From Chrysomallon squamiferum (Eukaryota; Animalia; Mollusca): a stretch of 64,000 nt of DNA. This document shows positions 1,371-36,602 of this stretch, one piece after another. The stretch lies in the NCBI GenBank assembly GCA_012295275.1, contig CM022672.1, positions 124,001-188,000 on the forward strand, in the 5' to 3' direction. The first letter of the stretch is position 1. Each line of letters begins with the position of its first letter. Under the pieces are notes generated by a model. The model made no database searches, was not told the DNA's origin, and saw only the letters and a program-made list of their open reading frames with translations. The position numbers were made by a program, and so were the translations under genes.

Positions 1371-1941
1371 GCCTTAAGCTCTAAAAACTGCCTTTTCATA
1401 ACTTGAATTACTGGCAAGATCACTAGCAGTCACCTAGATCAAGTTATGTTATGAATTCTCATAATTACAATGATGGGTGGTTGTCACTTCCAGAAAAAAG
1501 CCAGCTATAGCAATTGATATATCAGAATGAAGAGATACGTTGTAAACAATAAATCCTAAAATATACATTATCGTAATTTATAGATCTGAATGAAATTCAT
1601 TTTTCTTTTCTCTGATATACATACTCTATTATGCATTAAAAAAAAGTAATAATAATAATTTAGTTGACTTGCTATCAAATTTTTCATTACTAACATTATT
1701 TTGTTTTGTTTCATTTTTTTCTTGCAAAAGAAAATGTTATTTAGAACTAAACAGGTGATCACATTTATTGAATTTATAAATAAAATATTTTGTTAGGCCC
1801 TTGACAGTATTTGTGTGTGTGTGTGTGTGTGATTGGTTTTTTTTAATTATTATTTCTTTTTTATTATTTTATACAAGATATTTTATTTAAATTTTAATTT
1901 AAAAAAAATATTTCTCTTCCAGATTTTTGTTGAAATATACA

Positions 1942-2545
1942 ATGGATAAACAATATTCAGTGAAATTCTTTACATCGTTTGTTGAAGCAATGCAGAAATT
2001 TTGTCGAGAATATATAGAATTTGATCAGTGTGTTGAGCTGAGTGGTTATCTGGCAGTTGAGATAGATAATCATAAAAAAGAAAGATATGTATTAAGTGAA
2101 ATGTTGCAGAGTTCAGGAAATGTTATTAGTGAAAGCTACTGTACAAAAGCTTTCAAGACACTGCGCAAAGAACCCTCAGTTTCAAGAGGTAGTGAAAATA
2201 TTGGACCCCGAACTACGCAAGCGCATCCTGAAGAGGTAACCATTGTTTTGCGTGACAGCCCTGAAATGGTATCTCATGTGAACACACAGAGGCATCAGAG
2301 GTTTTCTAATCAACGATCCAGTACTTTCAGTCATTCACAGAGAGGTTATTCTTCTGGTCATACAAGAGAAATAATTAAGCTAGGAAATCCTTTTGATCAA
2401 CAAGTTAGACATACTCCAAATCAGATACAGCCTCGCTCGTTAGATTCATCATCAAGAAATAATTCATCATTTTCACCTTCATCAGCTCAAAAACGTCCAG
2501 GCAGTGAGTTAAATCACCAACAAGAATCACCTGCAGCTAAAAAAG
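1942..2545 (+). CDS. Common coding exon 1 of the multi-isoform transcription-factor gene: ~75-aa N-terminal globular domain (not BTB) followed by an S/Q/R-rich disordered region
   Basis: Acceptor ttctcttccag ends at 1922 (exon starts 1923, so an upstream UTR exon is implied); ATG 1942, MDKQYSVKFFTSFVEAMQKFCREYIEFDQCVELSGYLAVEIDN...; donor AAG|gtaagt after 2545, phase 1. Confidence 0.85.
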
Positions 2546-4102: not shown

Positions 4103-4467
4103 ATAAATGCGATTCAGTAACTTCCATACTGGCTGATCCAAGAAATGTTTATTCAGGTGATACAAGTGAATCACAACAGATAGCAGCATCTACAATACCA
4201 TTTTCATCACAATCCACTTCACAGAACACAGGTGAAAGTATTCGTTTGCCACTTTCAGCTACAGTGAAGGAAGAAGGCATAAGTTCAGTGATAACATTAG
4301 AAACCTCTGATAACACAGAGGAACATACAACAGAAAGTGACATTGGTGATAACTTGCAAGAAACTATGTCACTTGGTTTGGATGCTTCAGCAAATTATTC
4401 TAATAGTTCACAAAGTGGAATTGATGAAAATTCAGCATCATCTTCAGCCTATATATCACAGTTCAAG
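4103..4467 (+). CDS. Common coding exon 2 (acidic/Ser-Thr-rich linker, VKEE SUMO-consensus motif), ending in the shared phase-0 donor
   Basis: Acceptor ttttttctgcag ends at 4102; phase-1 join keeps the frame open (DKCDSVTSILADPRN...ATVKEEG...AYISQFK); donor AAG|gtaaat after 4467. Confidence 0.85.
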
Positions 4468-10949: not shown

Positions 10950-11138
10950 TGGCACAGACGCCCTTACCGTTCTGCATACAGCCTTAAGGATATTGATATG
11001 GCTGTCAGCCTTGTTGTCAACAAGCAGGCAAACTTGAGTACTGCCAGCAAGATCAGCGGTGTTCCAATAGCCACACTCCATAGACATGTGAGGCGGAGAA
11101 TCAAAATAAATGAAAAAAAACAAAAAACATTGACATAA
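10950..11138 (+). CDS. Alternative terminal exon P1: pipsqueak-type (HTH_psq/CENP-B N-like) helix-turn-helix; absent from the ORF track
   Basis: ctgtttcag| then phase 0: WHRRPYRSAYSLKDIDMAVSLVVNKQANLSTASKISGVPIATLHRHVRRRIKINEKKQKTLT*; matches the psq pattern YS..D...A...V....S...A....GVP..TL. Confidence 0.8.
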   Translation, partial: WHRRPYRSAYSLKDIDMAVSLVVNKQANLSTASKISGVPIATLHRHVRRRIKINEKKQKTLT

Positions 11139-13990: not shown

Positions 13991-14185
13991 AGCACACCTG
14001 TTGGATATCGCCGATCATTCAGAAACTATAGTCAAGAACAAATCAACTTTGGTATTCAGCTTGTTTCTCTTGAACACTGTAGTCTGTGTAAAGCCAGCAA
14101 GGTCTGTGGTGTTCCAAAAGCCACTCTGTTTAGGATTCTCCGACGAAGGAAAAATATAGAAGCACAGAGACTAGACACATTTTAA
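13991..14185 (+). CDS. Alternative terminal exon P2: pipsqueak-type helix-turn-helix
   Basis: cctttcag| phase 0: STPVGYRRSFRNYSQEQINFGIQLVSLEHCSLCKASKVCGVPKATLFRILRRRK...*. Confidence 0.8.
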   Translation, partial: STPVGYRRSFRNYSQEQINFGIQLVSLEHCSLCKASKVCGVPKATLFRILRRRKNIEAQRLDTF

Positions 14186-15427: not shown

Positions 15428-15634
15428 GTTATCAAATCCAGTTCAGCCACAATAAAATATAGGTGTGAAGTGTGTGGAAAGGAGTCTGTCGGCAAGTCTA
15501 ATTATCGACATCATATGGAGAAACACAACTTGTCAAGATTTCCTTGTTTGCACTGTGGCAAAAGTTACTCATTTCAATCTGCTTTGAGTCGACATCTAAA
15601 AACATGTCCTGTTAAACAACTTGCATTTAAATAA
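15428..15634 (+). CDS. Alternative terminal exon Z1: C2H2 + C2HC zinc-finger pair
   Basis: tattttcag| phase 0; CEVC..HMEKH / CLHC..HLKTC; stop TAA. Confidence 0.88.
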   Translation, partial: VIKSSSATIKYRCEVCGKESVGKSNYRHHMEKHNLSRFPCLHCGKSYSFQSALSRHLKTCPVKQLAFK

Positions 15635-15890
15635 CCTTCAATGATGTGCATCAGCTAGACATGTTCATTCACAAAGGATCTAGTTGAACATCAGTGGCCT
15701 GGATTTGTGTGTCTTCAGAGAAACAAAACAAGATAAAACTGAAAATGAGGAAATACATTTTTTTAAAATTACTTTATATATACATCCACTGTAGAAAGTT
15801 TCAAACTTTATACATGGTTAAATGGTGTGTTTTGTATTGTTTCAAACTTAACACCTCGGAGGTCTGTAAAATTGTCCTCTATACTTTCAG

Positions 15891-16094
15891 GTGAATTTCT
15901 CTTCCAGTGCTTCTCTGTCTGCAGATGGCTTAACCTGCAAGATATGTGGAGTGGAAGTTCATAGCCAGGTATACCTACGTCAGCACATGGAGAAACATAG
16001 TGCCACCCGTTTCCCATGTAGATTCTGTGGACGCAGTTACTCATTCAAATCATCTCTCAGGAGACACAAACATTCATGTTCTCAAAGATTTTAG
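15891..16094 (+). CDS. Alternative terminal exon Z2: C2H2 + C2HC pair
   Basis: tactttcag| phase 0; CKIC..HMEKH / CRFC..HKHSC. Confidence 0.88.
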   Translation: MNFSSSASLSADGLTCKICGVEVHSQVYLRQHMEKHSATRFPCRFCGRSYSFKSSLRRHKHSCSQRF

Positions 16095-16497
16095 ATTGTA
16101 CATTTTCTAGAAACCATTCCTTCAGTGTTGTATTTAGATATTTTGGGATACATTAAGTGGAAATCTTCTGATGACATTGAGCTGACCATGAAGACTATTT
16201 CTGTTTCATCTACTATAATACTGTTTTGTCTGTGTATGGTGAAATAACTTTGAATTAGTTTCTGAATCAGGGTCATTTTTAATCCAAAACAACATTATTG
16301 TGGTTGTTAACACTGGGAATAATGTGGATTTTGTGCAAATATCAGTTGAACTGGGAGAACTCTTGTAAGAATTGATGGACTTGCTGCTCGAGTTAAATGA
16401 AAAATATGGAAAATAATTTATTGGCAGGCAGATCTATATCTCTGCTGATGGTGTGAGCAGGGATAGATGAGTAAAGGCATTTTTGTTGCATTTCCAG

Positions 16498-16704
16498 ATG
16501 AGGTGTTTACCAGCATCAGGGGATGCACACTGTATGTGTTCTGTATGTAACAAGACTTTCACATCTGTGTTTTATCTTCAACAGCACACGCAGAAGCATG
16601 ACCAGTGTCATCATCCCTGCCTTTTATATAGAAAGAGCTTAACTCTCAAATCAAGTCTCTACAAACATGTTAAAAATAGATGCCATATCAAAAAACAGTT
16701 ATAA
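16498..16704 (+). CDS. Alternative terminal exon Z3: C2H2 plus a degenerate second finger (CLLY; second Cys replaced by Tyr)
   Basis: catttccag| phase 0; CSVC..HTQKH / CLLYRKSLTLKSSLYKHVKNRC; frame open but possibly decaying. Confidence 0.7.
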   Translation: MRCLPASGDAHCMCSVCNKTFTSVFYLQQHTQKHDQCHHPCLLYRKSLTLKSSLYKHVKNRCHIKKQL

Positions 16705-16877
16705 GAAGATAACAAAAATATAAAAATTATTTCTTAGATATCTGAAGGAAATCATTTTTAAGTGATTTTATTTATTTTTCAAACGTTGTTAAATGTACAT
16801 TACTAAGATACATGTGTTGTCCTAAATAAACAAAGACAGCTACTTTGTTGTTTGAAATAAATTTATCTTCTTTTTAA

Positions 16878-16908
<31 letters not shown>

Positions 16909-17256
16909 TTTACTTATTTATTTTAGTTAGTTAGTTTGTTAGTTTTTAATTATCTCACTGTTACAAGTAATTCACCATTATTTTAGAAAAATGAAAATTC
17001 TCAATAGTTAAAATCTTTCTCTACAAGAGGACGCTGTTAAATTTCTTTTAAAAACATATGTATATATACTTATATATTAGCACATTCTTGCATGAGCACA
17101 CACACACATATACACACACACAAATGTAAATATCTGAAATGAGATGCTAATATTATTAGCAGATATGTGAAGTTACAACAGTGGATGGTTTAAACATGTT
17201 TCTGCTTAGTGGACACCTGAAGAGATGTTTATTAGTGCTTTATCATATATTTTCAG

Positions 17257-17472
17257 ATGACATCTATTCGTCATTCAAGTCTCAGCAGTACCAGTGAAAT
17301 TTGCCTCATTTGTAGCAAGACATTTGGATCAAGCACATATTTAAAAGAACATATGCAAAAACATAATGAACGAATGACCTGCAATTTCTGTGGAAAGAGC
17401 TATTCTTTTAAATCTGCTCTCAATCGGCACAAACGATCTTGTCATATCAAAAATTTCCCACTTTTGCAGTAG
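17257..17472 (+). CDS. Alternative terminal exon Z4: C2H2 + C2HC pair
   Basis: tattttcag| phase 0; CLIC..HMQKH / CNFC..HKRSC. Confidence 0.88.
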   Translation: MTSIRHSSLSSTSEICLICSKTFGSSTYLKEHMQKHNERMTCNFCGKSYSFKSALNRHKRSCHIKNFPLLQ

Positions 17473-18607
17473 TTAATGTGAACAATCATAGGGACACTGT
17501 AATAATGTTTAATTATTTGAACTTGTATTAAGACACAGAAATATTATATAATTATTTTTTTCCATTTATTCAAACTATTGTGAAATGTTTTTTACTTTTA
17601 CTTCAAGATATGGTACTCTGTGTGATGTAATCAGCAGTCATAATAATCTGTATTTACAAGCTGCAAAACTGCATATGCGTGTGTGAGTGTAAAATACTGA
17701 CATTCTATTTATATGCTTATTACACAACACCTGTATATACTACATATAATTCTGTGATCTTATCCTAGATGTCTTTTAAGGGCATAGTCTGATAATAGGA
17801 CTCAAAATATTTTATCTTCATGATAAAAAAAAAAATGATGATTTTTTTATTCTAAAATTATGGTGTATTTTTTAACACATTGATTGTATGGTCAGTATAT
17901 GTTAGTGGATCAGATATAACTGCATTACACAAATTTTATATTTTGCCCCAGAATTTCATGAACAAGTTTCTTTAAAATGTTATTTTTTAATTTATTTATT
18001 TATTTATTTATTTTTTCTGATCATTTACTGTTACTTATTTGATGTAAAGTATCAATAACAGAAATGACAGTGTTCAGTAGTTGATATAGAAATTGTGTTT
18101 GAAATAATATAAACATTCTACAAAAGTGTATGCTTAAAAATGTAAAACTTTTGAAAAATATTCATGAATGAAGTAAATAAATGACACAAAGATTCATTTT
18201 TCTTATTTAAAAACTATTTAAGAAGATAAGTAAATTTATTTAATTTTTGTATTTATCTTTATTTTCGAAATATAATTTTATTCTACAGCAATAATTGTGA
18301 ATGCTAAGAAAAATCGTAAGGTTGATTCTGTGGTAGATTATTTGAAAATAAACATATGGATACTTTGTATTGAAGCCTTACACCATCAGTTAATTGGTAG
18401 CTGAGTGACTCTGCAGATAGTGCACATAAGTGTTTGAATTAATGTGAAATATTTGTTCATCTTCTAACTTCTTCATATAAGGATAAATAAAACTATGGAA
18501 ACCATGGTAGCATGTTGCAGATAAAAACCGTGTTGGATGGAAGTTCGATGGCATGCTGCAGATCAGTGGATGCTGCACCATCTGATTGGTTATTCTTGTC
18601 ATTTCAG

Positions 18608-18880
18608 ATGGGTACAATTTTGAGTGTGTTGCCACCGGCAGGCACAACACAACAAGATGCCTCCACTCCAGCTGAGCTTGGTTTCAAGGCAACATTTTCT
18701 TGCTCTGTTTGTGGCAGACATTTTCCTGCAAGTGGTAATTTGCGACAACATATGGAAAAACACAACCAGGCTCGATATTCCTGTGAATTTTGTGGGAAAA
18801 GCTATACATTTAAATCTAATCTTTTCCGCCATAACAGATTTTGTCAGATAAAAGCTTATCACGAGAAGACTAACCTGTAG
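18608..18880 (+). CDS. Alternative terminal exon Z5: C2H2 + C2HC pair
   Basis: gtcatttcag| phase 0; CSVC..HMEKH / CEFC..HNRFC. Confidence 0.88.
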   Translation: MGTILSVLPPAGTTQQDASTPAELGFKATFSCSVCGRHFPASGNLRQHMEKHNQARYSCEFCGKSYTFKSNLFRHNRFCQIKAYHEKTNL

Positions 18881-19027
18881 GTGGAAGAAAAACTAGCTTT
18901 TTTGAAAACACTGAACAATTGCTCTTTTGTTTTTGTGCATGGAATCCCAATGACAAACAAGAAGTGAAAATATTTTTATTTTAAACTTAGAAATGTCATT
19001 TACAGAGGCTTGTTTTTGTACTTTCAG

Positions 19028-19234
19028 GCTAATCTCACTCCAGCTATGGCTAACTATTCCTGTCTTACTTGTGGAAAATGCTTCAGTGAGAAGCTGTATT
19101 TACAACAGCATATGGACATGCACCGGGAAACTAAGTTCCCCTGCCCCTATTGTGGCAGAACTTATACCTTTAGATCAAATGTTTGTAGACATGCCAAAAC
19201 CTGTCCTCAAAGGCCAAACATAGGAGGAAATTAA
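19028..19234 (+). CDS. Alternative terminal exon Z6: C2H2 + C2HC pair
   Basis: tactttcag| phase 0; CLTC..HMDMH / CPYC..HAKTC. Confidence 0.88.
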   Translation, partial: ANLTPAMANYSCLTCGKCFSEKLYLQQHMDMHRETKFPCPYCGRTYTFRSNVCRHAKTCPQRPNIGGN

Positions 19235-19389
19235 TAATAAGGGAATTGGAGAGGATTTCTTCTACGTCACTGATCACATACGATTTCTTAAACCAAACCT
19301 CAAGATTTTCATTTTTAAAAAATTGGGGTTGCAGTTAGAATGGCCCAGTGCAGTTATTTGATATAGTATATATTTGTATGTACTTTCAG

Positions 19390-19573
19390 ATGGCAATACT
19401 GTCAAGACAAACATTTTACTGCTGTTTGTGAAAAAACCTTCAGTGAATATTGCTATCTCAGACAACATGAAGAAACACACAAGACTGAGTGATTCGCATA
19501 TCAATTTTGTGGTCTTTTTTCATTGAAGTCAAATCTGTGTCGCCACATAAAACATTGCAAACACATTAAGTAA
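19390..19573 (+). pseudogene. Pseudo-exon of the zinc-finger array
   Basis: tactttcag|ATG..., frameshift in the first CxxC, then CEKTFSEYCYLRQHEETHKTE*FAYQFCG..LKSNLCRHIKHC with an internal TGA and a Cys->Tyr change. Confidence 0.85.
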
Positions 19574-20214
19574 ACAGTATATTTTGTGCAACAACAATAT
19601 ACTACAATAGATATGTGTGTAACTGTCACACCACAATCAATTGTATATATATGTGTAATAGTTATACAGCACATTAAATAAATAGTGTATCAGTGTACAC
19701 CATATTCAAACTGTGTTGTGTGTAATGATATTGCACCATATTAAACAAAGTTATACTGCTTGTAATAATTTTAAACCACATTAACAAACTCTGTAATGTT
19801 TACATTAAATAAATTTGATTGTGACAGTTGTGTGAATTGAAGGAATGTGAACTGGACTTCTAATGAAATTTGAAAGAATATTTAAATAAATAATAAAAGA
19901 GGTTATTTTATATTCACTGTTTTCTGTCTAAATAAAAAAAAATTAAGCATAATATATACACAGAACTAACAAAAATATGTTTGATACTACAGTGAATAGC
20001 AAAACAAATATATGCTCTAGTAATTTTCATTAAATAGTGTTGCATGATCATTTCATTTATATGAAATGATGTGTAATGTCAGTATTGTTTAGTCATTACA
20101 TTATAGCTAGAATAAAAGGGAGGACAAAATACTAAACGGTGCCAACAACAAAAATCATTAGCTAAAAAACAGTTTCTGTTACCAGAAATCAGTTGCCTGT
20201 AGATCAGAATTGCG

Positions 20215-20256
<42 letters not shown>

Positions 20257-20382
20257 AACAAAAACAAATGAACACACACAAAAGTAAAATTTTATAGTTT
20301 TTAATTTTTTAGCTTTGTCACAAGTAAATTTGTTTTTATTTAAACTACATTGTCTTGGTTAAAGCTGTGTATTTATTTTCAG

Positions 20383-20607
20383 GTTGGCACAGAACTATTA
20401 TCCACATTTGCATCACAAAGGCTTACCTGTCCTATATGTGGGAAAACATTCAGTCAACGTGATTATTTAAAACAGCACATGCAGATACATAATAAATCCC
20501 GATTCCCATGTCAGTACTGTGGAAAAAGTTACTCATTCAAAACCAATTTGTGTAACCACCTTAAAATCTGTCGTGTCAAATTCCAGCAGTGGGATTCTAC
20601 AGAATGA
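20383..20607 (+). CDS. Alternative terminal exon Z7: C2H2 + C2HC pair
   Basis: ttattttcag| phase 0; CPIC..HMQIH / CQYC..HLKIC. Confidence 0.88.
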   Translation, partial: VGTELLSTFASQRLTCPICGKTFSQRDYLKQHMQIHNKSRFPCQYCGKSYSFKTNLCNHLKICRVKFQQWDSTE

Positions 20608-21883
20608 CAATGTAGGCTTTAATGTTAATACTCTATAATTTCAGTTTATTTCTTCTCAAGATACTTTATTATGAAAAATATTTATTTATTAACATAGATA
20701 GTTCTGTAGCTTGTTAATTAACTCTTTTGTTATTTTTATAATCTTAAATGTAAATCATAATTTCATTGCAAAACTAGACATAAAATTAAAGATTTTTTTT
20801 TAAAGAGATATAGAATTAGGAAGTCTCTTTAGAATGTTACAGAAATCTTATTAAATACATAAAACATTTGAAATGTCAAAAACTATTTCGTAGGTTCAGC
20901 TGTTCCACTTTTATTGTTTATATTGGTTAACTGCTGTTCATTTGACAGATAGCATCACTTGCATATATGTTGGGCCTTAATCAAGTTGAAAATTGAGAAA
21001 TGATATTATAGATCTATGATGGCACGCTGTATCTGCTGTACAGTGGAAAAAGTGGTTTTCAGTATAAATAGATGCTACTATCTGTTGAATGTTACACTCA
21101 TTTAAACTAGGACTGTTGAAATATTTTATTAAACTTCCATAGTTTTCTAAATTGATCTCATTGATCTGTTTCTTAGAAGAGAAAAAATCGATTTAATGCT
21201 AATTACTATTTATGGATGTTTCCAAACTTAACATTATTTCAGCTTTCAAGAAGTATATATTAGATTTCTCCAGAAAAAAAAAAATTAAATTTAAGAATAT
21301 ATCTATAAAAGAAAATAAGAAAAAAACACAATTGTTGAAAATGAATGATTTTTTAATGAAATTAAGATATTTCATAACATCACTATTATAAATACAAGTG
21401 TAAAAAAAACAGTAATTTATGTCTAGAGTAGATTATTATTTTTAAAACAGTTTTTTTTTTGTTGATGTTTTGTTTTTAAAGTTAAAATTATTGATTTCTG
21501 TAATTATTTCAAGGCATGTATTTATTAATTAATCACAGATGTTTATGGTTTTAATGGATTTTTCATACTGCTGCAGATTTACACAGGTGTAGAGGAAGTG
21601 TAATAAATTTGTCAAAATTGTTTCATTTAAAAACAGACAGTTGTTAATAACAGATCATAGTCATGTGCCATCATGTATTTGTAAACATTTGTTGGATGTG
21701 TATCTTTACAATTATTTTTTTTAAATCACAATTTTAGCATTTTAATAAAAGAGCCAGACTAAACATCATTGTTATATAATAACTAGTATTATGTTTGAAA
21801 CAAGAATTGTGATGTGCTGGATTCAGTGAATAGAAACAAGTTTATTCCACTCAACATTTTGTTAATATAATTGCCTATTTCAG

Positions 21884-22129
21884 ATGGGTAGGATGACATC
21901 TGACACTGGTGGCAGCCCAAGCAAATTGTCATGCCCTGTTTGTGGAAAGTTATTTGCAAAACGTCCTTACCTCAAACAACACATGGAAATACATAGCCGA
22001 TCCCGATTTACCTGCAATAAGTGTGGTCTACATTATTCTATGAAGTCTGCTCTCTGTAGGCATCAGAGGACATGTATAGTGAGGATGTCAGGTGGTGTGC
22101 CTAGCAGTGACAAATCAGAATTTAACTAA
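21884..22129 (+). CDS. Alternative terminal exon Z8: C2H2 + C2HC pair
   Basis: cctatttcag| phase 0; CPVC..HMEIH / CNKC..HQRTC. Confidence 0.88.
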   Translation: MGRMTSDTGGSPSKLSCPVCGKLFAKRPYLKQHMEIHSRSRFTCNKCGLHYSMKSALCRHQRTCIVRMSGGVPSSDKSEFN

Positions 22130-22166
22130 CTGCACACTAAAATGTTTGTGTTGTGTGTACTTTCAG

Positions 22167-22409
22167 GTGACATTACCAAACACAAACATTGAAGCGATGA
22201 CGTCTGTTGTGACGTTGTCGTCAGCTAGGCCTGTCATTTGTGCTACATGTGGACGCCAGTTTAGCAAGAGTCGGTACCTCAGACAACATATGGAGATTCA
22301 TAACAAGTCAAGATACCCATGTCACTACTGTGGCAAAAGTTACACCTTCAAATCTAATTTGTGTAACCACATGAAGATCTGTGAGGTCAGACTTAACTTA
22401 CCAAAATAA
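22167..22409 (+). CDS. Alternative terminal exon Z9: C2H2 + C2HC pair
   Basis: tactttcag| phase 0; CATC..HMEIH / CHYC..HMKIC. Confidence 0.88.
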   Translation: MTLPNTNIEAMTSVVTLSSARPVICATCGRQFSKSRYLRQHMEIHNKSRYPCHYCGKSYTFKSNLCNHMKICEVRLNLPK

Positions 22410-22589
22410 TCCTTGTCTTCGTTTCTAGGATTTGAAACACAAAATACCATGGAAAGTGTTTAATATTCCTGGAGTTATTTTCAGCAGACTTTTTCAAGTA
22501 ATAGTATCAGATCACTTTATGAAAGTTTTGTGCTGCAGAAATCAAGTGAATAACTAATTATCCTCACCGTATTTCTTCTGTTCTTTCAG

Positions 22590-22805
22590 AGGATGCCGAA
22601 CAATTCTATTGAACAGCCAGTTGCAGCACAGTGTCCAATTTGTGGCAGGCAATTTGCTGTCGCGCGGTATCTTCGACAACACTTGGAAGTGCACAGTCAG
22701 ACAAGATATGCTTGTTCAAATTGTGGTAGAAGCTATTCAATGAAATCTGCTCTAAGTCATCATTTAAAAGTTTGTCCTGGAATCCGTGCTGTCACTGGCA
22801 ATTGA
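22590..22805 (+). CDS. Alternative terminal exon Z10: C2H2 + C2HC pair
   Basis: ttctttcag|AGG ATG phase 0; CPIC..HLEVH / CSNC..HLKVC. Confidence 0.88.
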   Translation, partial: RMPNNSIEQPVAAQCPICGRQFAVARYLRQHLEVHSQTRYACSNCGRSYSMKSALSHHLKVCPGIRAVTGN

Positions 22806-24033
22806 TAAAATTACTCTTTGGATATTGCATATTTGTGGCAAAAATATTAGTTGAAAATAATTGACTGGAATCAAATTCCTTTATGAAAAGAGCATAATGA
22901 ACATAAAGGCAGATTGACAGAAAAATTAGATGGGTTTCTGCTTAACATAATTTTATGTTTTATTGTTTTTGAAAATCCATATGTGATGTTTTCAATACTG
23001 TTTAAGCTAATAACTTTTATTGTGTGTGTGTGTGTGTGCAAAAAGCTCTTTAACTTCAAAAGTGACGAGTAAATAATAGCTTTAGAAAATATTAAAAAGA
23101 ATTAAGTTAATTTCTTTTTGAAGAAACTTTTCTGGTGACAGTGATCATTCCAGCTAAAAAGAATGATTTACACCAGCATTTAAATTCATATTATTAGAAT
23201 TTTATTTAGTAATAGTAAATTATTAATTGTTACCGAGAAATTTACAGATACGCTTCCTAACATATAGATGTAGATGCAGGTGTGCAGACATGCACACATA
23301 TATTTGCCAGTTTGAAAATCAGTTCAACAAATGATCAAAATTCATCTGTAGCAAATGTATTCCAGTTGAAACAAATATTTTGGACATACATTTGAAATAA
23401 TGTGATTTTATTGTTTATAATATAGTTTATTTTTCTGGTCCTAAAATTGGCATTGACTTGTAGGCTGTGTTTGCTTTATGTTCAGTGGTATTTTAAAAAA
23501 ACTGTTATTAAGTTAAATGTTTAATGGTAACTCAGCTTTCCTAATTGTGACCTTTGAAAACTAGTATTACAAACATTACCTCCTAACAAATGGGTTTAAG
23601 ACCTGCCTAAACCAAAGACCTGATTCGTCATTCATTTTATCATTAATTTTACAGATTTTATTGTTGTAGATATTACATCTAATATTGTGGACATGGTTAT
23701 TCTCTAAACATGGATGCTATTTACAGAGTTACAAAAAAAAGTGTCTAATACTAAGACACAGAGTAACATTTTGGAACATCTAGTAGAAAGCGAGGTAAAA
23801 CTGCTTTCATTGTAAGCAAGACTGCAGTTCTTAAAGACAATTGTTATTATAACTAGCATTTCCACTATGATTGTAGCTGTTACTTTCATTACAAATGTGA
23901 CTAAAATATAAACATAGAGTAATGTGATTATGCACTTGTGGCAGTTGGCAACATACAATTGATGAGCAGATCTAATGACAACACAGTTAACTGGAAGACA
24001 GCAGAAAGTGATGTTTCATGTTGTGTTTTTCAG

Positions 24034-24234
24034 GTGGACATCACAGGAGAATATCTCAACTGTAAACTTTGTGGAAAACACTTCACTGAAAGTCGTTATC
24101 TCAGACAGCACATGGAGCTGCACAGTGATTCGCGATTTTCTTGCAGTTGCTGTGGCAAAACGTACACATTTAAATCTGGTTTGTCAAGGCATTCCAGACA
24201 TTGTAAAGGTATCAGAAGTGGAAAAAACTTCTGA
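24034..24234 (+). CDS. Alternative terminal exon Z11: C2H2 + C2HC pair
   Basis: gtttttcag| phase 0; CKLC..HMELH / CSCC..HSRHC. Confidence 0.88.
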   Translation: MDITGEYLNCKLCGKHFTESRYLRQHMELHSDSRFSCSCCGKTYTFKSGLSRHSRHCKGIRSGKNF

Positions 24235-24387
24235 AACCACTGCCAAATTACTAGTTAGCTAAGACATTGATGCACTACCAGCACAGAATATGTTTGGTTA
24301 TCATGACAAGTTGTAACAGAGGCTATTTGTCCTTTTTTTGTCTGCATGGTCATTCATGCTTGACAGTTTCATCTGCTATATTTTCAG

Positions 24388-24576
24388 ATGGGAACATCAT
24401 GGCATGCACTTGAGCCCTACCCATGCAGTATCTGTGGCAAAACGTTCAGCACTTACATGTACTTAAAACAACATATGCAGAAACACAACCAGTCAAGATT
24501 CCAGTGTACTTCGTGTGGAAAAAGTTACACCTTCAAGGCTGCCCTTTGTCGACACCAGAGGAATAAATGCCACTGA
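24388..24576 (+). CDS. Alternative terminal exon Z12: C2H2 + C2HC pair
   Basis: tattttcag| phase 0; CSIC..HMQKH / CTSC..HQRNKC. Confidence 0.88.
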   Translation: MGTSWHALEPYPCSICGKTFSTYMYLKQHMQKHNQSRFQCTSCGKSYTFKAALCRHQRNKCH

Positions 24577-26864
24577 TGTGGAATGTTTACATTTCCCACA
24601 CAACATAAGCTGTGTATGGCCACTGAACATTTTTGTTTCCTTTAATTGTAATTTTCCTTCAAAACAGTTAATATGTATTGCCACAGACAGTTAGTGCTCA
24701 TACAGACAGATTTTTTGAAATTGTAAATGAGATGAAATCTAGCTAAATAAATGTTCTGTTGTAATCTTTTAAACAGTTTGAGTATTTAACCTTGAATTTT
24801 TTTTGCAAAATTAACTGAATAATATCTGTTTGATATGTAAAGATATATAAAAATGGGTAAATACAGTTAATAATACTAACAGTAGATGTATTTAAAGTGT
24901 TACAGGCATGTCATTGGTAGAGAAATGGCTAGTACTAGAGCTAAAAAAAAAAATTTCCATGTTAACCTTCATTCAGAATAAGACCCTTGACCCTATTAAT
25001 GACAAATATCTTTTAAAAAATTTGCTCAGTTGTAATACAATTATCTGAAAACATTAATTTGTATATTGTAAGTGATAAGAAAAGCCATTTCACATAAAAA
25101 TATAGTTTGACTAATACCACAGAATATAAAACATTTTAATTGTTAAAAATAATCCATGTGGATAGACCATGATGAACTGGGGGAAAAAAATTAGATTCAG
25201 AAGAAAAATATTAATGTCCTTTGGTAATTATAGATTGTAATAAATGTCCTTTTTAGATAAATGATTAAAAACCAGCAGATAAGATTGGAAGATAACAGTA
25301 AAAGTAGTGGAAATGATAGCCTGTAATAAATATTACACCAGTATTAATGAAAACATTGTAGTTAAATCATTTATAAAGTAAAACGATAACGTCTACTGAT
25401 ATTATTATACATTTGCTACAGAAAATACTGAATTGAAAATACTGAATTAAAAAATGATTAGACTGATGTCTAGACAATAAATTATGATGTAGTATTGATT
25501 AGATAATTTATGTAGCTGATATGGTAATCTACTGCACTGGTACTTGCGTTATAACTGAACTAACTCCTGATAAATCTGTGGTGATGTATTACATGGTTCT
25601 TCTTTCTACATGACATTTGGTTGTAGAATAATACTACTGATTGTATTGTACTGAAAAAAGTAAAACAAGGAAGAAATATTTTATTAACACAAAATATATG
25701 TTTAAATATTCTGTTATGTAGTATTACATAACTAATGAGATATTTGTTTTCTTTATCAGAGAACCTCTGTATGCATCTTCCACTTCACAGGTTTGGTATT
25801 AGATAAATTGGTTAAAGGACACTTGCTGGAATGTGAAATTTCAGATACAGATTGCAGATTTCCATTTCAAAAATTCCAAACTCCAAAACTTACTTCAAGC
25901 CACTGAGACAATGACTGTTTTCAGATGGTTTTGCATACACAAACTTGGTTATTCATTTTCTCTGTCCTGAAATGTTGCTTTCATACAATTGCTGATAATG
26001 GTCACAACCTTTCAAAATGTCTTAAACTGCATAGCAAAATTTTTCTGTTTACAACAAATTCATTAAGAAAAGGCAAAATGTGCATCATATACATTTATGC
26101 AGACTTCTGCTTTTGACACTAAATCTAAACAAGTGAATTCAATTAGATTTCAGCACACATTAATAATGACCACTGTTTCTTAAGCCTTCAAAGAAGCATG
26201 ATCATTTCATCTGATGCAGAAGTCTAATTATGTGCCAGTTGCTGTCATTGTTTTTTTGTTCTGGAATTTACACCTGGTATTCAATGTAGAAATGGTGCCA
26301 GTTTGTGTTTATGTGTCATGAATTTCATTTTTAGACTTAGATCCCTTTGTTGAATTATTTCTGTAATTTTCATCAAACAAAATTTCAAAATCTAAAAATC
26401 TTCAAACTGTATTAACTGTTTGTATGCCTTTTATGACTGTTACAGTAGTCATAATTTTGAATTCTCTGCTACACTGGTCTCAACATTGACTTTCCTGTAT
26501 CGGTACAATTTCATCTTCTCTGCCCAGAGTGTTGCTATAATGTCACAGTTTTGACTGATCCTGGATCAGTAATTATTGCTATAATAATAATAATATTACA
26601 ATTTTTACTTCTCTTATGTCTGTAGTGACTGTTGTAGTTGTCACAATCCATCAGGTTGTAATGTACTGTTGAACTTTTCCATTGACCAGTACTCTGCTTG
26701 GGCGTTGTCTGCTTGTACTATAATTAAACAGCCTGCTGTTAGATACACAGTGTTAATGTACAATTAACAAATTATGGAACTGTAATGAAACAGTAAAAAT
26801 TGGGATAAATAGAGTTTACACTGGAGCTTAGTGATTGACAGTTTAATAATCATGAATTAGTATT

Positions 26865-27140
26865 GAATTAACTGACTTCTGACTAGTGGTATCATTATTT
26901 AGTAATGGTAATTGATTTCTTACTAGTGCTATCAAAAGTTAGTATTGTGTTAATTGATTTCTTTCTAGTTATATCATGAGGTAGTGTTGTTTTGATTTTT
27001 TACTGGTTATATCAAAAGTTACTGTAGTGTTAATTCATTTCTTACTAGTGCTATCATTAGTTAGTGTTCTTTCATTTATTACTAGTGGTATCCTTAGTGT
27101 TGTGTTCATTCATTTCTTACTAGTGCTGTCATTAGTTAAC
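26865..27140. repeat. Degenerate tandem repeat (tttcttactagtgctatca..ttagt..tgt unit) just upstream of exon Z13
   Basis: Recurrent actagtg[g/c]tatca motif with variable spacing. Confidence 0.65.
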
Positions 27141-27169
27141 TGATTAGTAGGTGCTGTTTGTATTTTCAG

Positions 27170-27382
27170 ACGGGTGGCAGCAGACCAAGGGACCTGTCAT
27201 GTTCAGTGTGTGGAAAAGAATTCCCAAGTTCACTGAAATACAATTACCAGAATTTGAAACAACACATGCAGAAACACAGCAATTCCAGATTTGTTTGTCC
27301 TATGTGTGGCAAGAGCTACCTCTTCAAACCATCTTTATTTCGACACCAGAAACTTTGTACTTACAGAAAAATGAAATTTTAG
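27170..27382 (+). CDS. Alternative terminal exon Z13: C2H2 with a 17-residue loop + C2HC
   Basis: tattttcag| phase 0; CSVC GKEFPSSLKYNYQNLKQ HMQKH / CPMC..HQKLC. Confidence 0.87.
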   Translation, partial: TGGSRPRDLSCSVCGKEFPSSLKYNYQNLKQHMQKHSNSRFVCPMCGKSYLFKPSLFRHQKLCTYRKMKF

Positions 27383-27537
27383 TATTTGGAGAGAATATTT
27401 CATATTGTTTTGTTTTGGTTGATTGGTATTGACTTTGAATCTCAGTGTAATGTTCAGGTAGATTCTGGTAGAAGGACTAAAGTATAGATCTGGGTAGATG
27501 AGGATATTTCTTCTTAATCAGTATTGTGTCTTTTCAG

Positions 27538-27756
27538 AAAGTTGCCTCCAGGAAAAAGGACTTGATTTGCACGATATGTGGCAAAGTTTTCCCCAGGTCA
27601 TTGACATACAATTACCAGAATTTGAAACAGCATATGCAGAAACACAGTGAAGGGGGATTTCCCTGTAAAATGTGTGGTAAAGTGTTTTCTTTCAAAACTG
27701 CGGCAAAGAGGCATGAGGAATTTGCCTGCCATTGGCACTCCATTCTACCCAGTTAG
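27538..27756 (+). CDS. Alternative terminal exon Z14: C2H2 with a 17-residue loop + C2HC
   Basis: tcttttcag| phase 0; CTIC GKVFPRSLTYNYQNLKQ HMQKH / CKMC..HEEFAC. Confidence 0.87.
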   Translation, partial: KVASRKKDLICTICGKVFPRSLTYNYQNLKQHMQKHSEGGFPCKMCGKVFSFKTAAKRHEEFACHWHSILPS

Positions 27757-28970
27757 TTCTTTATGAGAAAGAACAGACTGAAACAAACCACACAACTTAC
27801 TTCAGTTTATATCTCGTGAAACTGTTTTTTTAAACTGTACAACATAAAAAATTAAAAATAACATGTTTTATTCTTTTATGCTGCAGTTTGATTAAGAGTA
27901 AAATCATGTTCTGGAGCTGTGTGAATCACTGCATTAAAACTACTTCATTTATACATATGTACATCAGTATGTTATTAAAACTGTAGAATTACATAGTGTT
28001 TGTTCTATGTGCTATACAGCTTATAGGAATGTATATATATAGTAAACATTATGAAGTTCCACATTTGTAAAAAAAAAGCCATTAATACCACATACATTCT
28101 GTTCACATACATAAGACATGATTAAGAAATCATATATTTTTACAGGACAAATAATGTTAACTACCAATTATAACACAGGAGCAAATAAAATTATTCTACT
28201 GATTATAACTATACTGTATTATAATTAAACCAGAAGTCACAAGAAAATGTCAGTAATAATTAAGATTGTTAAGTCACCAAATAACAGTAAACTTTTAACT
28301 ATGAGAATAGAAAATAATTCTTTTGTTCCACTGTATGAAGTCAAATGTCTGCAGGAGGAATGGATATACCCAAGACAGCGGTGTCACAAATACAGTACCT
28401 TACTGAAGACAAAACATAAAATGAATGCCAGTCAGATCTTGAAACTTGATTTTCATGAACTGCAATAATTACTTTACTGTTGGTAGCATATGTGCATAAA
28501 TGAATGTACAAAAACACTCTTACACACTATTTTAAAACAAATTCCAAAATTATTATTATTATTATTTTTTTTTTTTGTACCCTGAATACTGCATGGAAAC
28601 AATGTAATTTCTGTTTATTTTACCCTGAATACTGTCTCACAAAGTATCTGATTTATATTAGCCTTACCCTGAATACTGTTCTGACAGTGTGTAATTTATA
28701 TTAACCTTACCCTGAATACTGATGTAATTTATAGAAGTTTGATTTTTTTTGGAATTGTTTTTTGGATTTTTTTTGGCTCTTGCTACACTATAGCTTGTCT
28801 TGAATTTATCTAAGTCACATGGTTTGTAAATCACTATCAGTGTGTTGATGTGACAACTGAAGTAACTAGCAGAGCTCAACTATATTGTTTGCTGAAGTAA
28901 CTGCAAAAAAAATGTTATTGAGAGAATAAACCCAAGAAAAATCCCAATGATTTCTGTTCTATTTTTTCAG

Positions 28971-29189
28971 ACCTACGAGAAGGGGTTGTTGAATCCAACT
29001 TCACAGTCTGTTGAATGTAATGTTTGTGGCAAGACATTCCCTGCATCAATAAACCTAAAACAGCATATGCAGAAGCACGACCAGCGTTATCCTTGCTTGC
29101 TGTGTGGTCTCAGTTTCTCTTTCAAATCTGCCCTCAAGAGACACCAGCAGAAGACTTGTCCAGCACGAAGCTCATTCCCACAGATGTAA
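28971..29189 (+). CDS. Alternative terminal exon Z15: C2H2 + C2HC pair
   Basis: attttttcag| phase 0; CNVC..HMQKH / CLLC..HQQKTC. Confidence 0.88.
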   Translation, partial: TYEKGLLNPTSQSVECNVCGKTFPASINLKQHMQKHDQRYPCLLCGLSFSFKSALKRHQQKTCPARSSFPQM

Positions 29190-30868
29190 GACTCAGTAGA
29201 ACTTGTGTTTCTAACAGTGCCAGTTTTTGTTCACTGGACGTTTATCTCGTGGGTTATGTGAGGATTTTCTTGTACACATTACTTTCTGTTCTTTGGATGA
29301 CTGTAAATGTAATTGTTGTTAAATCTTGATACGGCCTAGCATTTGAGAGAAAAATTTTCTCAGCTAAGCTGAATATTCCCATTCCTCATGTTTTTATTTG
29401 GATATACCTGCCTTGTATTTCATGTCTACTAGTGCAAGCAAATCTTGCCTATATGTTCTTAACATTATAGATAATTATAGTAACTATAATAAGTATTTTA
29501 CAAAATACCACATATTCTAAAGGTTATTTTTGTTGAACACATTTTTTATAAATCTTTGATGACCATTAGAAGTATTATTCTGATAATATGTCCCAGTGGT
29601 TTCATGTTTCTTATTTTCTTAAGAGACTATAATGCATTACCACAGCAAGTTCTGGTTGAGTCAACTTCATCTGAAAATGAAATCCTGGAATAGAATTAAA
29701 TTTGAAGCTTCTGTATGATGTGTTCAGTTTGTGGTGTGAATGTGTAGTGATTTTCATTGTTGTGTAGACTTGTATATTTGTGTTTTTGTTGTAGCCTGTG
29801 ATCAGTTTATATTGTGTACTAAAGTGGCAAACAGAAGATCTCTTCTGTAGAAGAGAATTTTGGAACATTAACTTGTGTTTGACGTTTTTTTCCTGTTTTA
29901 CTGATGACTGTTTAAAGATTTTTTTTTTTTGAACAAGAGAATATCTTTGCTGCAAAACATTGACCATACAACTATTGCTAATTAAAGTAGCATAAAAATA
30001 TAATGATAATGAACCAGTTAAAATATAATTATTAATGGATATAATTGCCAAAACAAATATAACAACTCGGTAGTAAGTTCAAATTAACTGTTTTTGAATT
30101 TATTTGTTTACTGCTGTTACTAGTAATTTCACTTGACTTACTTTACACTGTGTTCACTTCAGTGCTAATTTCAATTTGATAGTTGTAACTTGAATTTTCT
30201 GCATTTTCAAGGACTGAATCCCTGATAAAGATTTCCTGCATTCACCTTGGTACAATTTTGTGGGTGTGTGTGTGGAAGAAGATTACAGACTGTTGTGTGC
30301 ATGGAAGAAGATTACAGACTAGTACTCCATGTAGTATCAGTTGTTTAATGTTTTATAAAATTTTCTTCTTACAATTTATGGGGTGGGTGGAACAGTTCAA
30401 GTTCAAGATGAATAACTTCAGATGGCAATGAACCTTGCTGACAGGGTTTGTTTTACTTCTTAAAATATTACAAACCCCCACTCCCATTATTTTTACTTTG
30501 ATAATAAATACTGCGATTTATAAAGATTTATTTTTCAGTTATTATATTTGTTGCTTTAACATAACCATTTTTATATTATAATCTTTCTGAAAGCAGATAC
30601 AGAAAAATCCTAAATACTAATTAAAGATGTAATTAAAAATCATACAAAAATGATATTTCTGTGATATTTATATAACTGGAGCACATTACACTTTAAGACT
30701 ACTGTGATACACAATTTTGCACAGGAGTTGCTGTTTGCAGTATTGATGAAGATTCTGTTGATTGTGCTATTATAATTTCCATGGCATATCCAAAGTAGTT
30801 GCACCTGTTTATTTTAAGGCAGTGTTTTAATGGCAGTTCTAAAGTAGGTTCTACTCTGTTTGTTTCAG

Positions 30869-31072
30869 GTTAAAAGTGACAAGGGATTGGATTTGATGTG
30901 TCCTGTTTGTGACAGAGTGTTCCCTCCATCTAAACGAACATACATTTATCAGCACATGGAAAAACACAATGAGAGAGGCTACGTCTGTGAAACATGCAAT
31001 AAACGTTTTTCATTCAAGTCTTCACTAAAACGACACATTCAGAAATTCTGTATATCAAAAATGTTTAATTGA
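30869..31072 (+). CDS. Alternative terminal exon Z16: C2H2 with a 14-residue loop + C2HC
   Basis: ttgtttcag| phase 0; CPVC DRVFPPSKRTYIYQ HMEKH / CETC..HIQKFC. Confidence 0.87.
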   Translation, partial: VKSDKGLDLMCPVCDRVFPPSKRTYIYQHMEKHNERGYVCETCNKRFSFKSSLKRHIQKFCISKMFN

Positions 31073-31407
31073 GTCATTTTTGGTAACAGTCTGTTTTACT
31101 ACAAATGTAAACTATTCCTATCATGTTCAATAGTATTTTTCTGTAAAATCAAGAACTAGGAAAGTTTGAGATAGTACAGACATTTATGTTCAAATTGGAA
31201 ATTGGTTTGTGAAGTAGCTTTATCCCTTTTCAGTTTTCAACAGCTAATTTATCTTCATAAATTAATTATTTCAAATGATCTCTGAAATTCAATAAATTTA
31301 TAGACCAAATAAGCATTATAATATTTCATAGTATATAGAGAAAGAACTATTGCAATGAATTAATCCATTTCTAAATTTATTTCAAGCTGATGAACCCTCC
31401 ATCTAAC

Positions 31408-31980
31408 ATGCTTAGCAAGAAAAGGTTTTTCAAGACATTGATGAAGAGGGCCAGATGACTTTTTACTGACAGTTGTAGGCCTTAGTTAAAAACAAATAAA
31501 ATAAAAAGGAGACACTAATAATTATTATTTGATAGTGAGAGGGAGGTGCTGAGAAAAATACTTTATATAGTTTTTTCAATTTTAATTTTTTTTTTTGATA
31601 TGTGTCTGGAAGAGGCATTCTACAATGAATTCTGTTCTTGATTAAATACAAAATAACAGTTACTAAATAGCTCATTCTGTGTCAAATCAGCCCCCACATT
31701 TTAATCTCACCATCTTATATTTTTCTGAAATTTGGTACAACATAGCATAACTAGCACAGATCTTAACTGGTGCAGTAGTTTTGAAGTTTTAAAGAGCCCT
31801 GAAATTTTGGAATTGTGCTTCTAAAATGGATGTGAACACCACTTTTAATACCATTCTATTTTTGTAAACACTAGATTTTTAATAACTGAAAGCTAATTTG
31901 ATAAAGATTCCAAATCTGTCATTAATTTCTTTTTGGATAAATTCATCAATGTCTTGAAAAACCTTTTCTTGCTTAGCATT
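31408..31980. repeat. ~35-bp inverted repeat pair about 500 bp apart (possible MITE ends)
   Basis: gcaagaaaaggttttttcaagacattgatgaa (~31415-31445) versus ttcatcaatgtcttgaaaaaccttttcttgc (~31942-31972). Confidence 0.65.
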
Positions 31981-34304
31981 TGGGTAAGCTAGCTAAATTT
32001 TGCTGATCTTAAATTTGATCTTGTGGTCCACATTTCCACAAAAATATCTAAAGTCTAAATTAAACACCAAGATGTTACCTACAACATACAAAACTCCAAA
32101 CAAGTTATATTTTTAGTTAAGTAGCAAATTCAAAGATGGTGACATTAAACTCGATGGGTGATGTCCCAATTGTTACATGTATATAAAAATTCTATAAATT
32201 AAGAAATTGATCTATAAAAAAAAAGTAAATAAATGAAACAATATAAATCCCAAACAAATCAGAAGATACAAACTACATAAATAATAATGTTCAAACAAGC
32301 ATAATATTACAGTAATTTGATATTTACAATTCAATAAGACGTGTATGTTTACAAAAGTATTTACTATCAAAAATGTTGATAAACATTTTTGATAAAGTTC
32401 AGGCTACCTAATTTGAAAGTGGATGAAACGTAAGTCATACTATCATGTTCAGTTACATGAAAGCATATATTAATAGAGATATGCCAGCCATTAAGTTTTG
32501 GTGTATTTATATTTACACTATTACATGTCAGTAACCACGATGTATGTATGAGTGACCACAATTTCTAGCATGTTTTACTATGTCCAGTCATGCAGTGAAT
32601 TACATGTGATATAATTTCTAAGTGCACAGAAGGAAAAATTGAGAACCAATGAAAGTTTCTTTTGAATTGAACTTCGCAGGATTCCCATGATTTATTCAAC
32701 TAAAATAGAAATTCCAAAGCTGTTGTAGTTGTTATTTACATGTCATGTGTATGAAGTAACTTAAATAAACTATCTTTTCAAGTTTTGTCTGTGCAATTGT
32801 GTTTATTTTAATTTTTACAGTCAGTGAACTGAGCTGAACAGACTTTGTCTGCTTTCTTCACTTGTTGATAGACTTGTTACATGTTACATTCTTATTGACA
32901 TGCTTAGAAACATTTTGATTTGTTTTTGTTATTAGTTTGTCAGGTTAATTTGCATCATTTTACTCCAGATTTTTCAATAACTGTCAGCTTGAGAAATAAA
33001 TGTGTTCAGTGATAATAGATTTTGTAGTTCCAAAAACCATTGCAAGTGCTACAATAACAGTTAAAAATTTACCCCTACAACCAAAAGCATGTTCCAAGAC
33101 ATTAATTTAAAAATCAGTGAAAGCTGCAGTTAATAATTACAATACATCTCCAAGATTCCCAGTTGTACATTTGAAGCTCTTAAAGATGTGTGTATATGTG
33201 CTTACTGGATAAAGCATATTTCATAGATTAGGGAATTCAACTTGTTCTCTTTCTGTTATTTTATTTAACTTAATGTTAAAAAGTTACAGCCACTCTCTTT
33301 CATAGCATTATTTCCTAATGTAAATCAATAACAAATATCTCTTTTTATTTATTTTTTAATTTTTTTAAACTTAAAAAAATCTATTACTCATTATATGCAT
33401 TGTTGAAGAAAAACAACAACAGAAAACCTCATGAAAAAACGAACAAAGAGCAAAATAAAAACGATTAATAAACCCCATCTATGTGTAAATTCTTAAAATA
33501 TAATGAGACTTTGGGTGAATTAATTAGTTTTAGTTATTCTAATCTTCAAAATATTTTCTCTGTAAATATTTTGGGTAACCATGAAGCTGTGTCCGATATG
33601 TATATTCATAAAACTAAATTTAAATTACTCATTTTATTTGTAGGGTGGAGAGAGACAAAATTCAAATAAAATCAGATACAGCTGATATTCTTTAAACAGT
33701 GCCATAGAGCACTAATTCAAAATAATAGAGATGGCTCTAAAACTTCTGTAGGAATATTATCTTCCTTAGCCACTTTGCCAGGAAACATCATTACAGTCAA
33801 CTTCAGTATAACCTGATAACCATGTTAACATGTAGCAGAATTGTGTTACTACAGAGGAGAAAACACAAAGACTTGATGGGTTAAACTAATGTTAACTGTT
33901 AGATGTCATATGCAAGTATTAGCTGTGTATACATAAGTATTAACTGTCAGTGTCATTTATAAATAATAACAATCATGGTTATGTATAAGTAGCTGCCACT
34001 ATTATTTATGAATTGTGAGCATCATCATTTTATGTAATATAACATTAACACTTGTTGCTACATATAAAAACTAGTATTGTCTGCTAAACATGAAAAACAA
34101 TTCTCAGGTATATATAAATACGTATTACTGTCACTGTCACATGCTAATTATATATTACATGCATAAATAAATATCAGCTCGTAATGTATTTGATACTTTA
34201 TATACATGCACACAACCATACACACAAACACACACACACACACACACACAAAGCAGTTACTGAAAAAGAGGCAGATCAAACCAGGGTATATTGTTTACTT
34301 TCAG

Positions 34305-34505
34305 GTGGATAGGCAGGTGGAAGTGCTGACCTGCAGTGTTTGTAGGAAGGAGTTTCCAGCTATATTCAATCTGAAACAACACATGCAGAAACACTGTGAA
34401 GCCAAGTTTCCATGTATCTTGTGTGGAAAACTGTTTTCTTTCAAAGCTGCTGCAAAAAGACACATGCTAAAATACTGTAGTTTCCGATCTCAGTTGTTCA
34501 GTTAG
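34305..34505 (+). CDS. Alternative terminal exon Z17: C2H2 + C2HC pair
   Basis: ttactttcag| phase 0; CSVC..HMQKH / CILC..HMLKYC. Confidence 0.88.
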   Translation: MDRQVEVLTCSVCRKEFPAIFNLKQHMQKHCEAKFPCILCGKLFSFKAAAKRHMLKYCSFRSQLFS

Positions 34506-35460
34506 CAGAAATGTTAATGTTTAAGACTTCAGATGTATAATACATTTATGTGAATAGAAAAATTACCATAATGCAAGTGCATTAAAGATTATCATTAAAA
34601 CATTAGCAGAAAATATAAAAAAAAAAAAAAAAAAAATTTTTTTTTAAATTCTGAATTGTTGGTGATATACAGCAGGAAAATATTTTATTCATATTTCTGT
34701 TTCATTTTTAATGTTTATAGAGAATAACACAATGACTTTGGAACCAGAATGTTTTTATTGACGTTTAGTACACACACAACTTAAAGTTTTTTATTTTTTA
34801 TCAGGCTTGGACAGATTCCTGGTAAGCACTTTTGATTTTGTTGAAATCTAACAACTGTCCACACTGTTTCTCTTAGACACTTAGACATAGCCTCATACAA
34901 ACATTTACCTGTACACTTTCTTCTCACACTAGTGATAGAGTAAGATAGATTATTTATTAATTAGTTAACAGGATGTCATGCAAAAGCCTTCTTTAACTGA
35001 TAAATTACCCACACATTTGTTGAAAATATGAAATATTTGTTATTAAATATCAGGTCCTGTTCACATTTATATAAAAAGGCATTATATTCCTTCTTTTTTA
35101 TGTTATATCAAACTGGCAAACAATTTTCAGTAAAAAGCAAAACGTGTGCAAACTGGAAAAATAATGTTGTCTCCAACCATTTTACCAATTTGAATCCAGC
35201 ATGATTATTATTTTAAAACTTTGTCATGTCTTGCTAAACTTTGTTATCAGTGATTTAAACTTTTTCACTGATATTGATATAATTATGATAATATTAGACT
35301 CAAGCTATTGTCCATTTTGGTACAAAAATTTGTTTTTTGTTTTAGTAATCAAATTAACCCATGAAGTATATGTTTGTTGTATGATTGTTTTTATCTATTT
35401 ATTTAACAAACATGAAACACAGATTGACATCCACTATATAAAACTCTATTTGTATTTCAG

Positions 35461-35655
35461 GAGACTTCTACTCATGGCAGCTTTGTGTGTTCTCTGTGTG
35501 CCAAACTATTCCCTGCCATTTATAACTTAAAACAACATATGCAGAAGCACAGCCAGTTGGGATTCTCCTGTGTTTTATGTCATGCAAACTTCAGATTTAA
35601 ATCTAGTCTCCATCGTCACCAAAAAGCAACCTGTCCATTCCGTATAAAACACTAG
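35461..35655 (+). CDS. Alternative terminal exon Z18: C2H2 + C2HC pair; absent from the ORF track
   Basis: tgtatttcag| phase 0: ETSTHGSFVCSLCAKLFPAIYNLKQHMQKHSQLGFSCVLCHANFRFKSSLHRHQKATCPFRIKH*. Confidence 0.88.
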   Translation, partial: ETSTHGSFVCSLCAKLFPAIYNLKQHMQKHSQLGFSCVLCHANFRFKSSLHRHQKATCPFRIKH

Positions 35656-36428: not shown

Positions 36429-36602
36429 GGTTCAGCCAACCCAACATGTCCAGTTTGTGGTAAGAAGTTCCATGCTTTAATCAATGTGAGACAGCACATG
36501 GAGAAACACAGTGCATCTCGCTTTCCTTGTCGTAAATGTGGAGCCAGCTTTTCTTTCAAATCAAGTCTGTATCGACATATCAAGCGTTGTGTTTATTCTT
36601 AA
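36429..36602 (+). CDS. Alternative terminal exon Z19: C2H2 + C2HC pair
   Basis: ttactttcag| phase 0; CPVC..HMEKH / CRKC..HIKRC. Confidence 0.88.
   Translation, partial: GSANPTCPVCGKKFHALINVRQHMEKHSASRFPCRKCGASFSFKSSLYRHIKRCVYS

Follow-up and report, generated by a model that had tools for sequence, protein, structure and literature searches.

The window analyzed here, a 64-kb stretch of Chrysomallon squamiferum DNA, contains a gene whose exons all lie on the plus strand and begin with a constant front. This front consists of exon A (1923..2545), comprising 19 untranslated bases, a conserved N-terminal domain, and the start of a linker, and exon B (4103..4467), which encodes a Ser-rich linker and carries a phase-0 donor at its end; both were delimited by splice sites and RNA. 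On translation, exons A and B encode a 323-aa constant part with no internal stop. The domain, placed by translation from the ATG at 1942 and by alignments, is 75 aa long (1942..2166; core residues ∼6-56), and a profile search found no second copy of it in the window. RNA contigs, which were examined over positions 1200-14400 in four runs from one study, include the A-B joint in all four runs and show a loose end at 1923, again in all four; an untranslated exon lies upstream of exon A, and none was located within the window. Hydrophobic residues make up 45% of residues 1-75 vs 24% of residues 76-323, the latter being 20% Ser and 41.5% Ser, Thr, Asn, or Gln, in agreement with the ∼250 low-complexity residues that a preliminary description, made from the sequence alone, had placed after the domain. 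Within this linker, residues 256-259 (4264..4275) form a SUMO-consensus motif, psi-K-x-E, which is a candidate site by its sequence.

On the 3' side of the constant front lie 21 intact, in-phase terminal exons, namely 19 encoding zinc-finger pairs and 2 encoding pipsqueak-type helix-turn-helix domains. The first pipsqueak-type exon (10950..11138) matches HTH_psq with an E value of 0.0009 and 19.3 bits (cut-off 20.4), and an RNA contig begins exactly at its start, 10950; the second (13991..14185) matches at E 0.0035, also below the curated cut-off. The zinc-finger exons were located by tblastn, which found 22 loci: the 19 intact exons (15428..36602), each with a phase-0 acceptor and its own stop, one degenerate exon, and two far-end exons of differing type. 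Exon 15428 shares 82% identity with the tail of the orthologous isoform P0003. The degenerate exon (19390-19561) carries a frameshift and a stop, with intact neighbors on either side, and represents turnover inside the zinc-finger array. A joint from exon B to the exon at 13991 is present in one of the four RNA runs, with a short side of 27 letters, and one RNA contig runs from exon B into sequence whose sole match is at position 22590. Exon B therefore joins at least two different terminal exons, these joints having been observed for 2 of the 21 terminal exons, each in one contig of one study. With one constant front and alternative DNA-binding terminal exons, the gene has the layout of the fly genes lola and mod(mdg4).

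Several further observations concern this array and its surroundings. In three of the four runs, RNA contigs contain one extra A at 11112, shortly before the first pipsqueak-type exon ends, which would alter the last few codons and is either an allele or an assembly slip. The two far-end zinc-finger exons are unlike the main array: in that at 40771-41011, the acceptor does not fit the phase of exon B and is followed one base later by an ATG, and that at 41907-42128 has a weak phase-0 acceptor. The best matches of both are the tails of other family genes (32-47%), and both may derive from a different gene or a different start site. Elsewhere in the window, positions 63-600 hold a DDE transposase remnant, decayed and interrupted by stops (DDE_3, E 3.8e-06 on 378-467), which we take to be Tc1/mariner; positions 37700-39700 are simple tandem repeats with spurious open frames on both strands; and plus-strand exons at 55926-63896 belong to an unrelated downstream gene, probably for a VWDE-like extracellular protein, which match F5/8 type C (E 3.2e-06) and, weakly, a VWDE-like Ig domain (E 0.005).

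Conservation is much stronger in the domain than in the linker that follows it. The closest named gene is LOC121384253 of Gigantopelta aegis, a peltospirid gastropod, with which identity is 97% over residues 1-75 vs 66% over residues 76-323. Likewise, nine G. aegis paralogs show 73-96% identity in the domain vs 24-39% in the linker, and an Aplysia protein and its two pulmonate orthologs show 97% vs 43-45%; conservation fades near residue 75. Of 142 candidates in a single-sequence search, 130 were relatives at E<=0.01, and among the best 120 of these 130, which were inspected, the named ones all belong to Haliotis or G. aegis; for the latter species, 12 locus ids among the matches listed lie on one 91.7 Mb contig. 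The number of relatives, together with an identity far above that of the linker, argues that the domain is not a chance reading frame. A 22-row profile, run against 1.84 billion representatives, found 265 at E<=0.001 and 55 at 1e-10, of which the best 150 of the 265 were inspected; its distant rows share 23-37% identity with the window domain and align with the near group at an hhalign probability of 99.7. An organism was named for 11 of 30 clusters looked up, every one a gastropod (Pomacea, Batillaria, Babylonia, Nucella, Lymnaea, Physella, Plakobranchus, Patella, and Lottia). Further, a profile made from distant members only gave 332 matches among 7990 scored candidates, and the best 120 of these, which were inspected, add Aplysia, Biomphalaria, Elysia, Bradybaena, Bulinus, Arion, and Candidula.

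Among the matches listed, all named family members are thus gastropods, including Neomphalina, Vetigastropoda, Patellogastropoda, Caenogastropoda, and Heterobranchia. The resemblance to molluscan proteins that had been suggested previously is accordingly borne out by relatives in G. aegis, Haliotis, and other gastropods among these matches. The suggestion of a lineage-specific module stands insofar as the named members listed are all gastropods, but it does not hold for a narrow lineage, as the family spans several gastropod subclasses. Other spiralian proteins may carry an N-terminal motif with similar spacing. In 70 non-redundant copies, Gly35, Asp42, and Glu53 are invariant, Cys21 is found in 68, and Phe9 in 66; charged or polar positions that are near-invariant across paralogs are Glu40, Asp42, Glu47, Arg48, Glu53, and Ser63-Ser65. 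A domain tree, which has few columns and 19 of 61 branches open, was used only for viewing subfamilies, and one repeat protein with 12 weak stretches (P0161) was discarded as a false match. On sequence grounds, the domain constitutes a new domain family.

Family proteins have a uniform architecture. Exactly one copy of the domain is found in 381 of 382 collected proteins and two copies in none, and in 372 of the 381 it starts within the first 30 residues. When proteins with identical first 120 residues were grouped (at least three members per group, 25 groups), the ends were all different in 23 groups, with a shared stretch of 281-410 residues before the tails diverge; a few of these identical-front groups mix close species, and for relatives the isoform sets come from gene models in databases. 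This answers affirmatively the question of whether paralogs with this domain also carry alternative 3' arrays. Genes with many tails headed by the domain occur in Aplysia, Physella, Biomphalaria, Pomacea, and Haliotis, with isoform numbers in database names reaching X21 in Aplysia and X37 in Physella among the matches listed. The tails comprise C2H2, psq, BEN, FLYWCH, BED, Nrf1, and zf-Tnp_2 types, as well as DUF3504 and CENP-B_N, a family being matched in the tail of 24 of 34 isoforms chosen as non-finger or doubtful. Because the tails are of so many DNA-binding types, the head is independent of DNA-binding chemistry. A transposon origin is described for BED, CENPB, and HTH-psq factors in PMC10027918, where the word 'isoform' does not occur, and DUF3504 is reported to be encoded by CryptonA elements (PMC13465315). 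Individual cases (P0254, P0060-P0062, P0163, P0176, and P0187) include a Haliotis gene of this family whose tails extend to an Nrf1 DNA-binding domain, a G. aegis gene whose isoforms end in zinc fingers or in DUF3504, and three proteins of 1600-1800 aa that have the domain at residue 97-115, one of them, from Lottia, being labelled Vertnin.

The head matched no known domain in our sequence searches, as the preliminary description had led us to expect of an unrecognized 75-aa constant module. Pfam-A returned no family at E<=10 for residues 1-75 or 1-201 and none at E<=1 for exon B; PDB sequence searches with the domain and with 64 members returned nothing at E<=10; and a phage tblastn gave no match. 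Two candidates were rejected: NCBIfam CobB/CfbB (E 0.003-0.008), which appeared in 12-13 of 64 members, excluding that of the window, as a chance match on one subfamily, and Pfam DUF6272 (E 0.0044), which appeared in 2 of 64 members, at chance level. We found no description of the domain in the literature searched, mostly outside subscription journals and without supplements, and the available portions of PMC10547256 and PMC12774644 name no molluscan accessory domain.

In position and gene layout, the head matches BTB of lola and mod(mdg4), which would suit a divergent or truncated BTB, ZAD, SCAN, or KRAB domain, and among the names that databases assign automatically to relatives are 'zinc finger and BTB domain-containing' and 'KRAB and SCAN'. 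These names mislead; the precomputed Pfam columns of the relatives show tail domains only. Moreover, as had been noted from the sequence, no BTB, KRAB, SCAN, or ZAD signature is present: neither these nor an SRF family was found in Pfam with 22 or 64 aligned members. BTB cores are mainly helical and span ∼100-120 residues with five or more helices; here, conservation extends to ∼75 residues, and one helix with long strands is predicted in both models described below. ZAD contains four conserved zinc-binding cysteines, but only column 21 holds a Cys conserved in at least half of the 70 non-redundant copies, and no His column is conserved. Further, the FxLRWN motif of TTK-type BTB domains, as given in the accessible part of PMC11426971, is absent from the window translation and from the consensus of the 64-row alignment. 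A derivation from any of these four domains is therefore very improbable.

AlphaFold2 predicted for the window domain an amphipathic helix (residues 3-24; 1948..2013), a long β-hairpin (residues 30-41 and 45-56; 2029..2109), and short C-terminal strands, with a pLDDT of 80.6 and a pTM of 0.67, which matches the order of an amphipathic helix and β-strands anticipated previously. For a member only 27% identical, the predicted elements were a helix at 3-24 and strands at 30-41, 45-57, and 63-67 (pLDDT 89.4, pTM 0.73), the two models sharing a method and part of their alignments. In the predicted arrangement, the long helix packs on a sheet formed by the long hairpin and a short strand. The alignment of 70 copies places eight conserved hydrophobic positions of the helix inside a 140-degree arc, and the hairpin has an alternating hydrophobic pattern with a second face that is partly hydrophobic. 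On this face, opposite the main core, hydrophobic residues occur at positions 36 (0.79), 50 (0.87), 54 (0.63), and 38 (0.54), its exposure being read from alignment columns and not from coordinates; the domain's own residues 63-71 may cover it.

Foldseek gave no matches at E<=0.001 with either model. In VIA-align, the best match of both was the pseudopilin XcpV/W, with a Z score of 5.1 for the first model (rmsd 3.3, 66 aligned) and 5.7 for the second (rmsd 3.2, 69 aligned); such scores lie in the range of common arrangements and show neither a new fold nor its exclusion. No BTB, ZAD, SCAN, or KRAB entry was among the best 50 rows for either model. The ESM Atlas returned nameless bacterial clusters at 0.84 or less, which are leads at best, and gave no usable match with a distant family member as the query. 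The MADS-box core consists of a long helix and a β-hairpin and pairs to form a coiled coil beneath a four-stranded sheet. That the head is a remote relative of this dimerization core, or of another known small α/β fold, is suggested by the same order of elements, by the 140-degree arc of the helix, and, as a weak lead, by MEF2D (7x1n_B), which ranked 50th with the second model as the query (Z 3.5, rmsd 3.6, 48 aligned, 8% identity), model residues 1-56 being superposed on residues 12-60 of the chain. This relationship is nevertheless quite unlikely: a Z of 3.5 is inside the background (1050 chains at Z>=2) and below the pseudopilins, MEF2D is not among the best 50 rows for the first model, and the 64 members have no Pfam or PDB sequence match of this kind, SRF-TF being absent from their Pfam matches at E<=1. 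Furthermore, the strands of the snail domain are longer, and its median net charge is -2, unlike that of a DNA-binding MADS box.

We therefore consider the domain to be the constant head of gastropod alternative-tail transcription factors and, with a probability of roughly 60%, a self- and cross-association module, convergent with the Tramtrack-type BTB domain in role and different from it in predicted fold. Self-association is likely by analogy and from the surface pattern in the alignment, because (i) the head is N-terminal and constant whatever the tail, (ii) the tails have just two fingers, (iii) the second sheet face is hydrophobic and the hydrophobic arc of the helix is wide, and (iv) the arthropod system of the same layout has a multimerizing head. 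With two fingers or one helix-turn-helix, each isoform would bind weakly and read a short site, so that association through the head would add avidity and allow isoforms and paralogs to combine specificities. A two-copy complex prediction, run with no alignment and no controls and with the monomer fold uncertain in at least one run, scored 0.01 and 0.02 (mark 0.32) and speaks neither for nor against association.

A surface that binds a cofactor, like that of KRAB, would explain the strong conservation just as well. The head could act as a monomeric effector with a single conserved cofactor, in the way that KRAB recruits TRIM28, and with isoforms acting singly; near-invariant charged and polar positions across paralogs suit a shared external partner, and the SUMO consensus in the linker fits a repressor. 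KRAB proteins, on the other hand, use long finger arrays, unlike the tails of just two fingers or one helix-turn-helix seen here, and surface residues vary between subfamilies, as subfamily-specific pairing predicts. An effector role of this kind is thus rather unlikely as the whole explanation, but it can coexist with oligomerization. Of 24 family genes, 23 have the SUMO consensus psi-K-x-E, a feature absent from the preliminary description, in their linker, where 500 shuffles gave an expectation of 1.5 and a maximum of 6, the motif having been picked after its sighting in the window and the 24 linkers, which represent 23 groups and an ortholog, not being independent cases because orthologs are included. 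In a disordered linker, it may connect the complex with nuclear bodies or with repression that depends on SUMO.

The association module would occupy the place of a known system. TTK-type BTB proteins, as described in the accessible part of PMC11426971, have an N-terminal, multimerizing head with broad heteromeric binding, one or two C2H2 fingers, FLYWCH or HTH partners, and many isoforms, and were not found there in Mollusca. The snail proteins resemble those of lola and mod(mdg4) in having a constant N-terminal domain, a disordered linker, and many isoforms with differing short DNA-binding tails, and they resemble the TTK group in family expansion and in a link to SUMO, given there by SUMO conjugation of Mod(mdg4)-67.2 (available part of PMC4638101) and here by the linker consensus. 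They differ in a head of ∼75 aa with one predicted helix and long strands, no BTB profile match, and no FxLRWN, and in their occurrence in gastropods, where the same portion of PMC11426971 has no TTK-type BTB. Compared with ZAD, SCAN, and KRAB, listed as effector domains of C2H2 proteins in the accessible part of PMC12774644, the head is likewise a small, lineage-expanded N-terminal module followed by a linker and zinc fingers, with clustered paralogs; unlike them, it has no profile match, and its tails are short, swapped through alternative terminal exons, and in some cases not fingers.

The cassette layout is thus already known from flies, and the head family, which is not in Pfam-A, is new. 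In the literature searched, we found no molluscan counterpart of the KRAB, ZAD, or TTK-BTB heads, and the domain is a candidate for such a counterpart of the heads that organize vertebrate and insect zinc-finger families. A bolder proposal, which we hold tentatively and at somewhat short of an even chance, is that an undescribed oligomerization domain with its own fold stands in the place of TTK-BTB in gastropods, and possibly in spiralians, heading dozens of genes with tens of DNA-binding ends each, many of them transposon-related, whose products hetero-assemble into a combinatorial code. If so, the lola/mod(mdg4) design would have evolved twice, with unrelated heads, the same tail kit, and a SUMO-bearing linker. 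As snails and slugs kept in laboratories (Aplysia, Lymnaea, Biomphalaria, and Pomacea) have the domain, this transcription-factor diversification is testable with a 75-aa construct. If the head does oligomerize, isoform choice would multiply DNA specificities, and the fly design would be a repeated solution and not a peculiarity of BTB.
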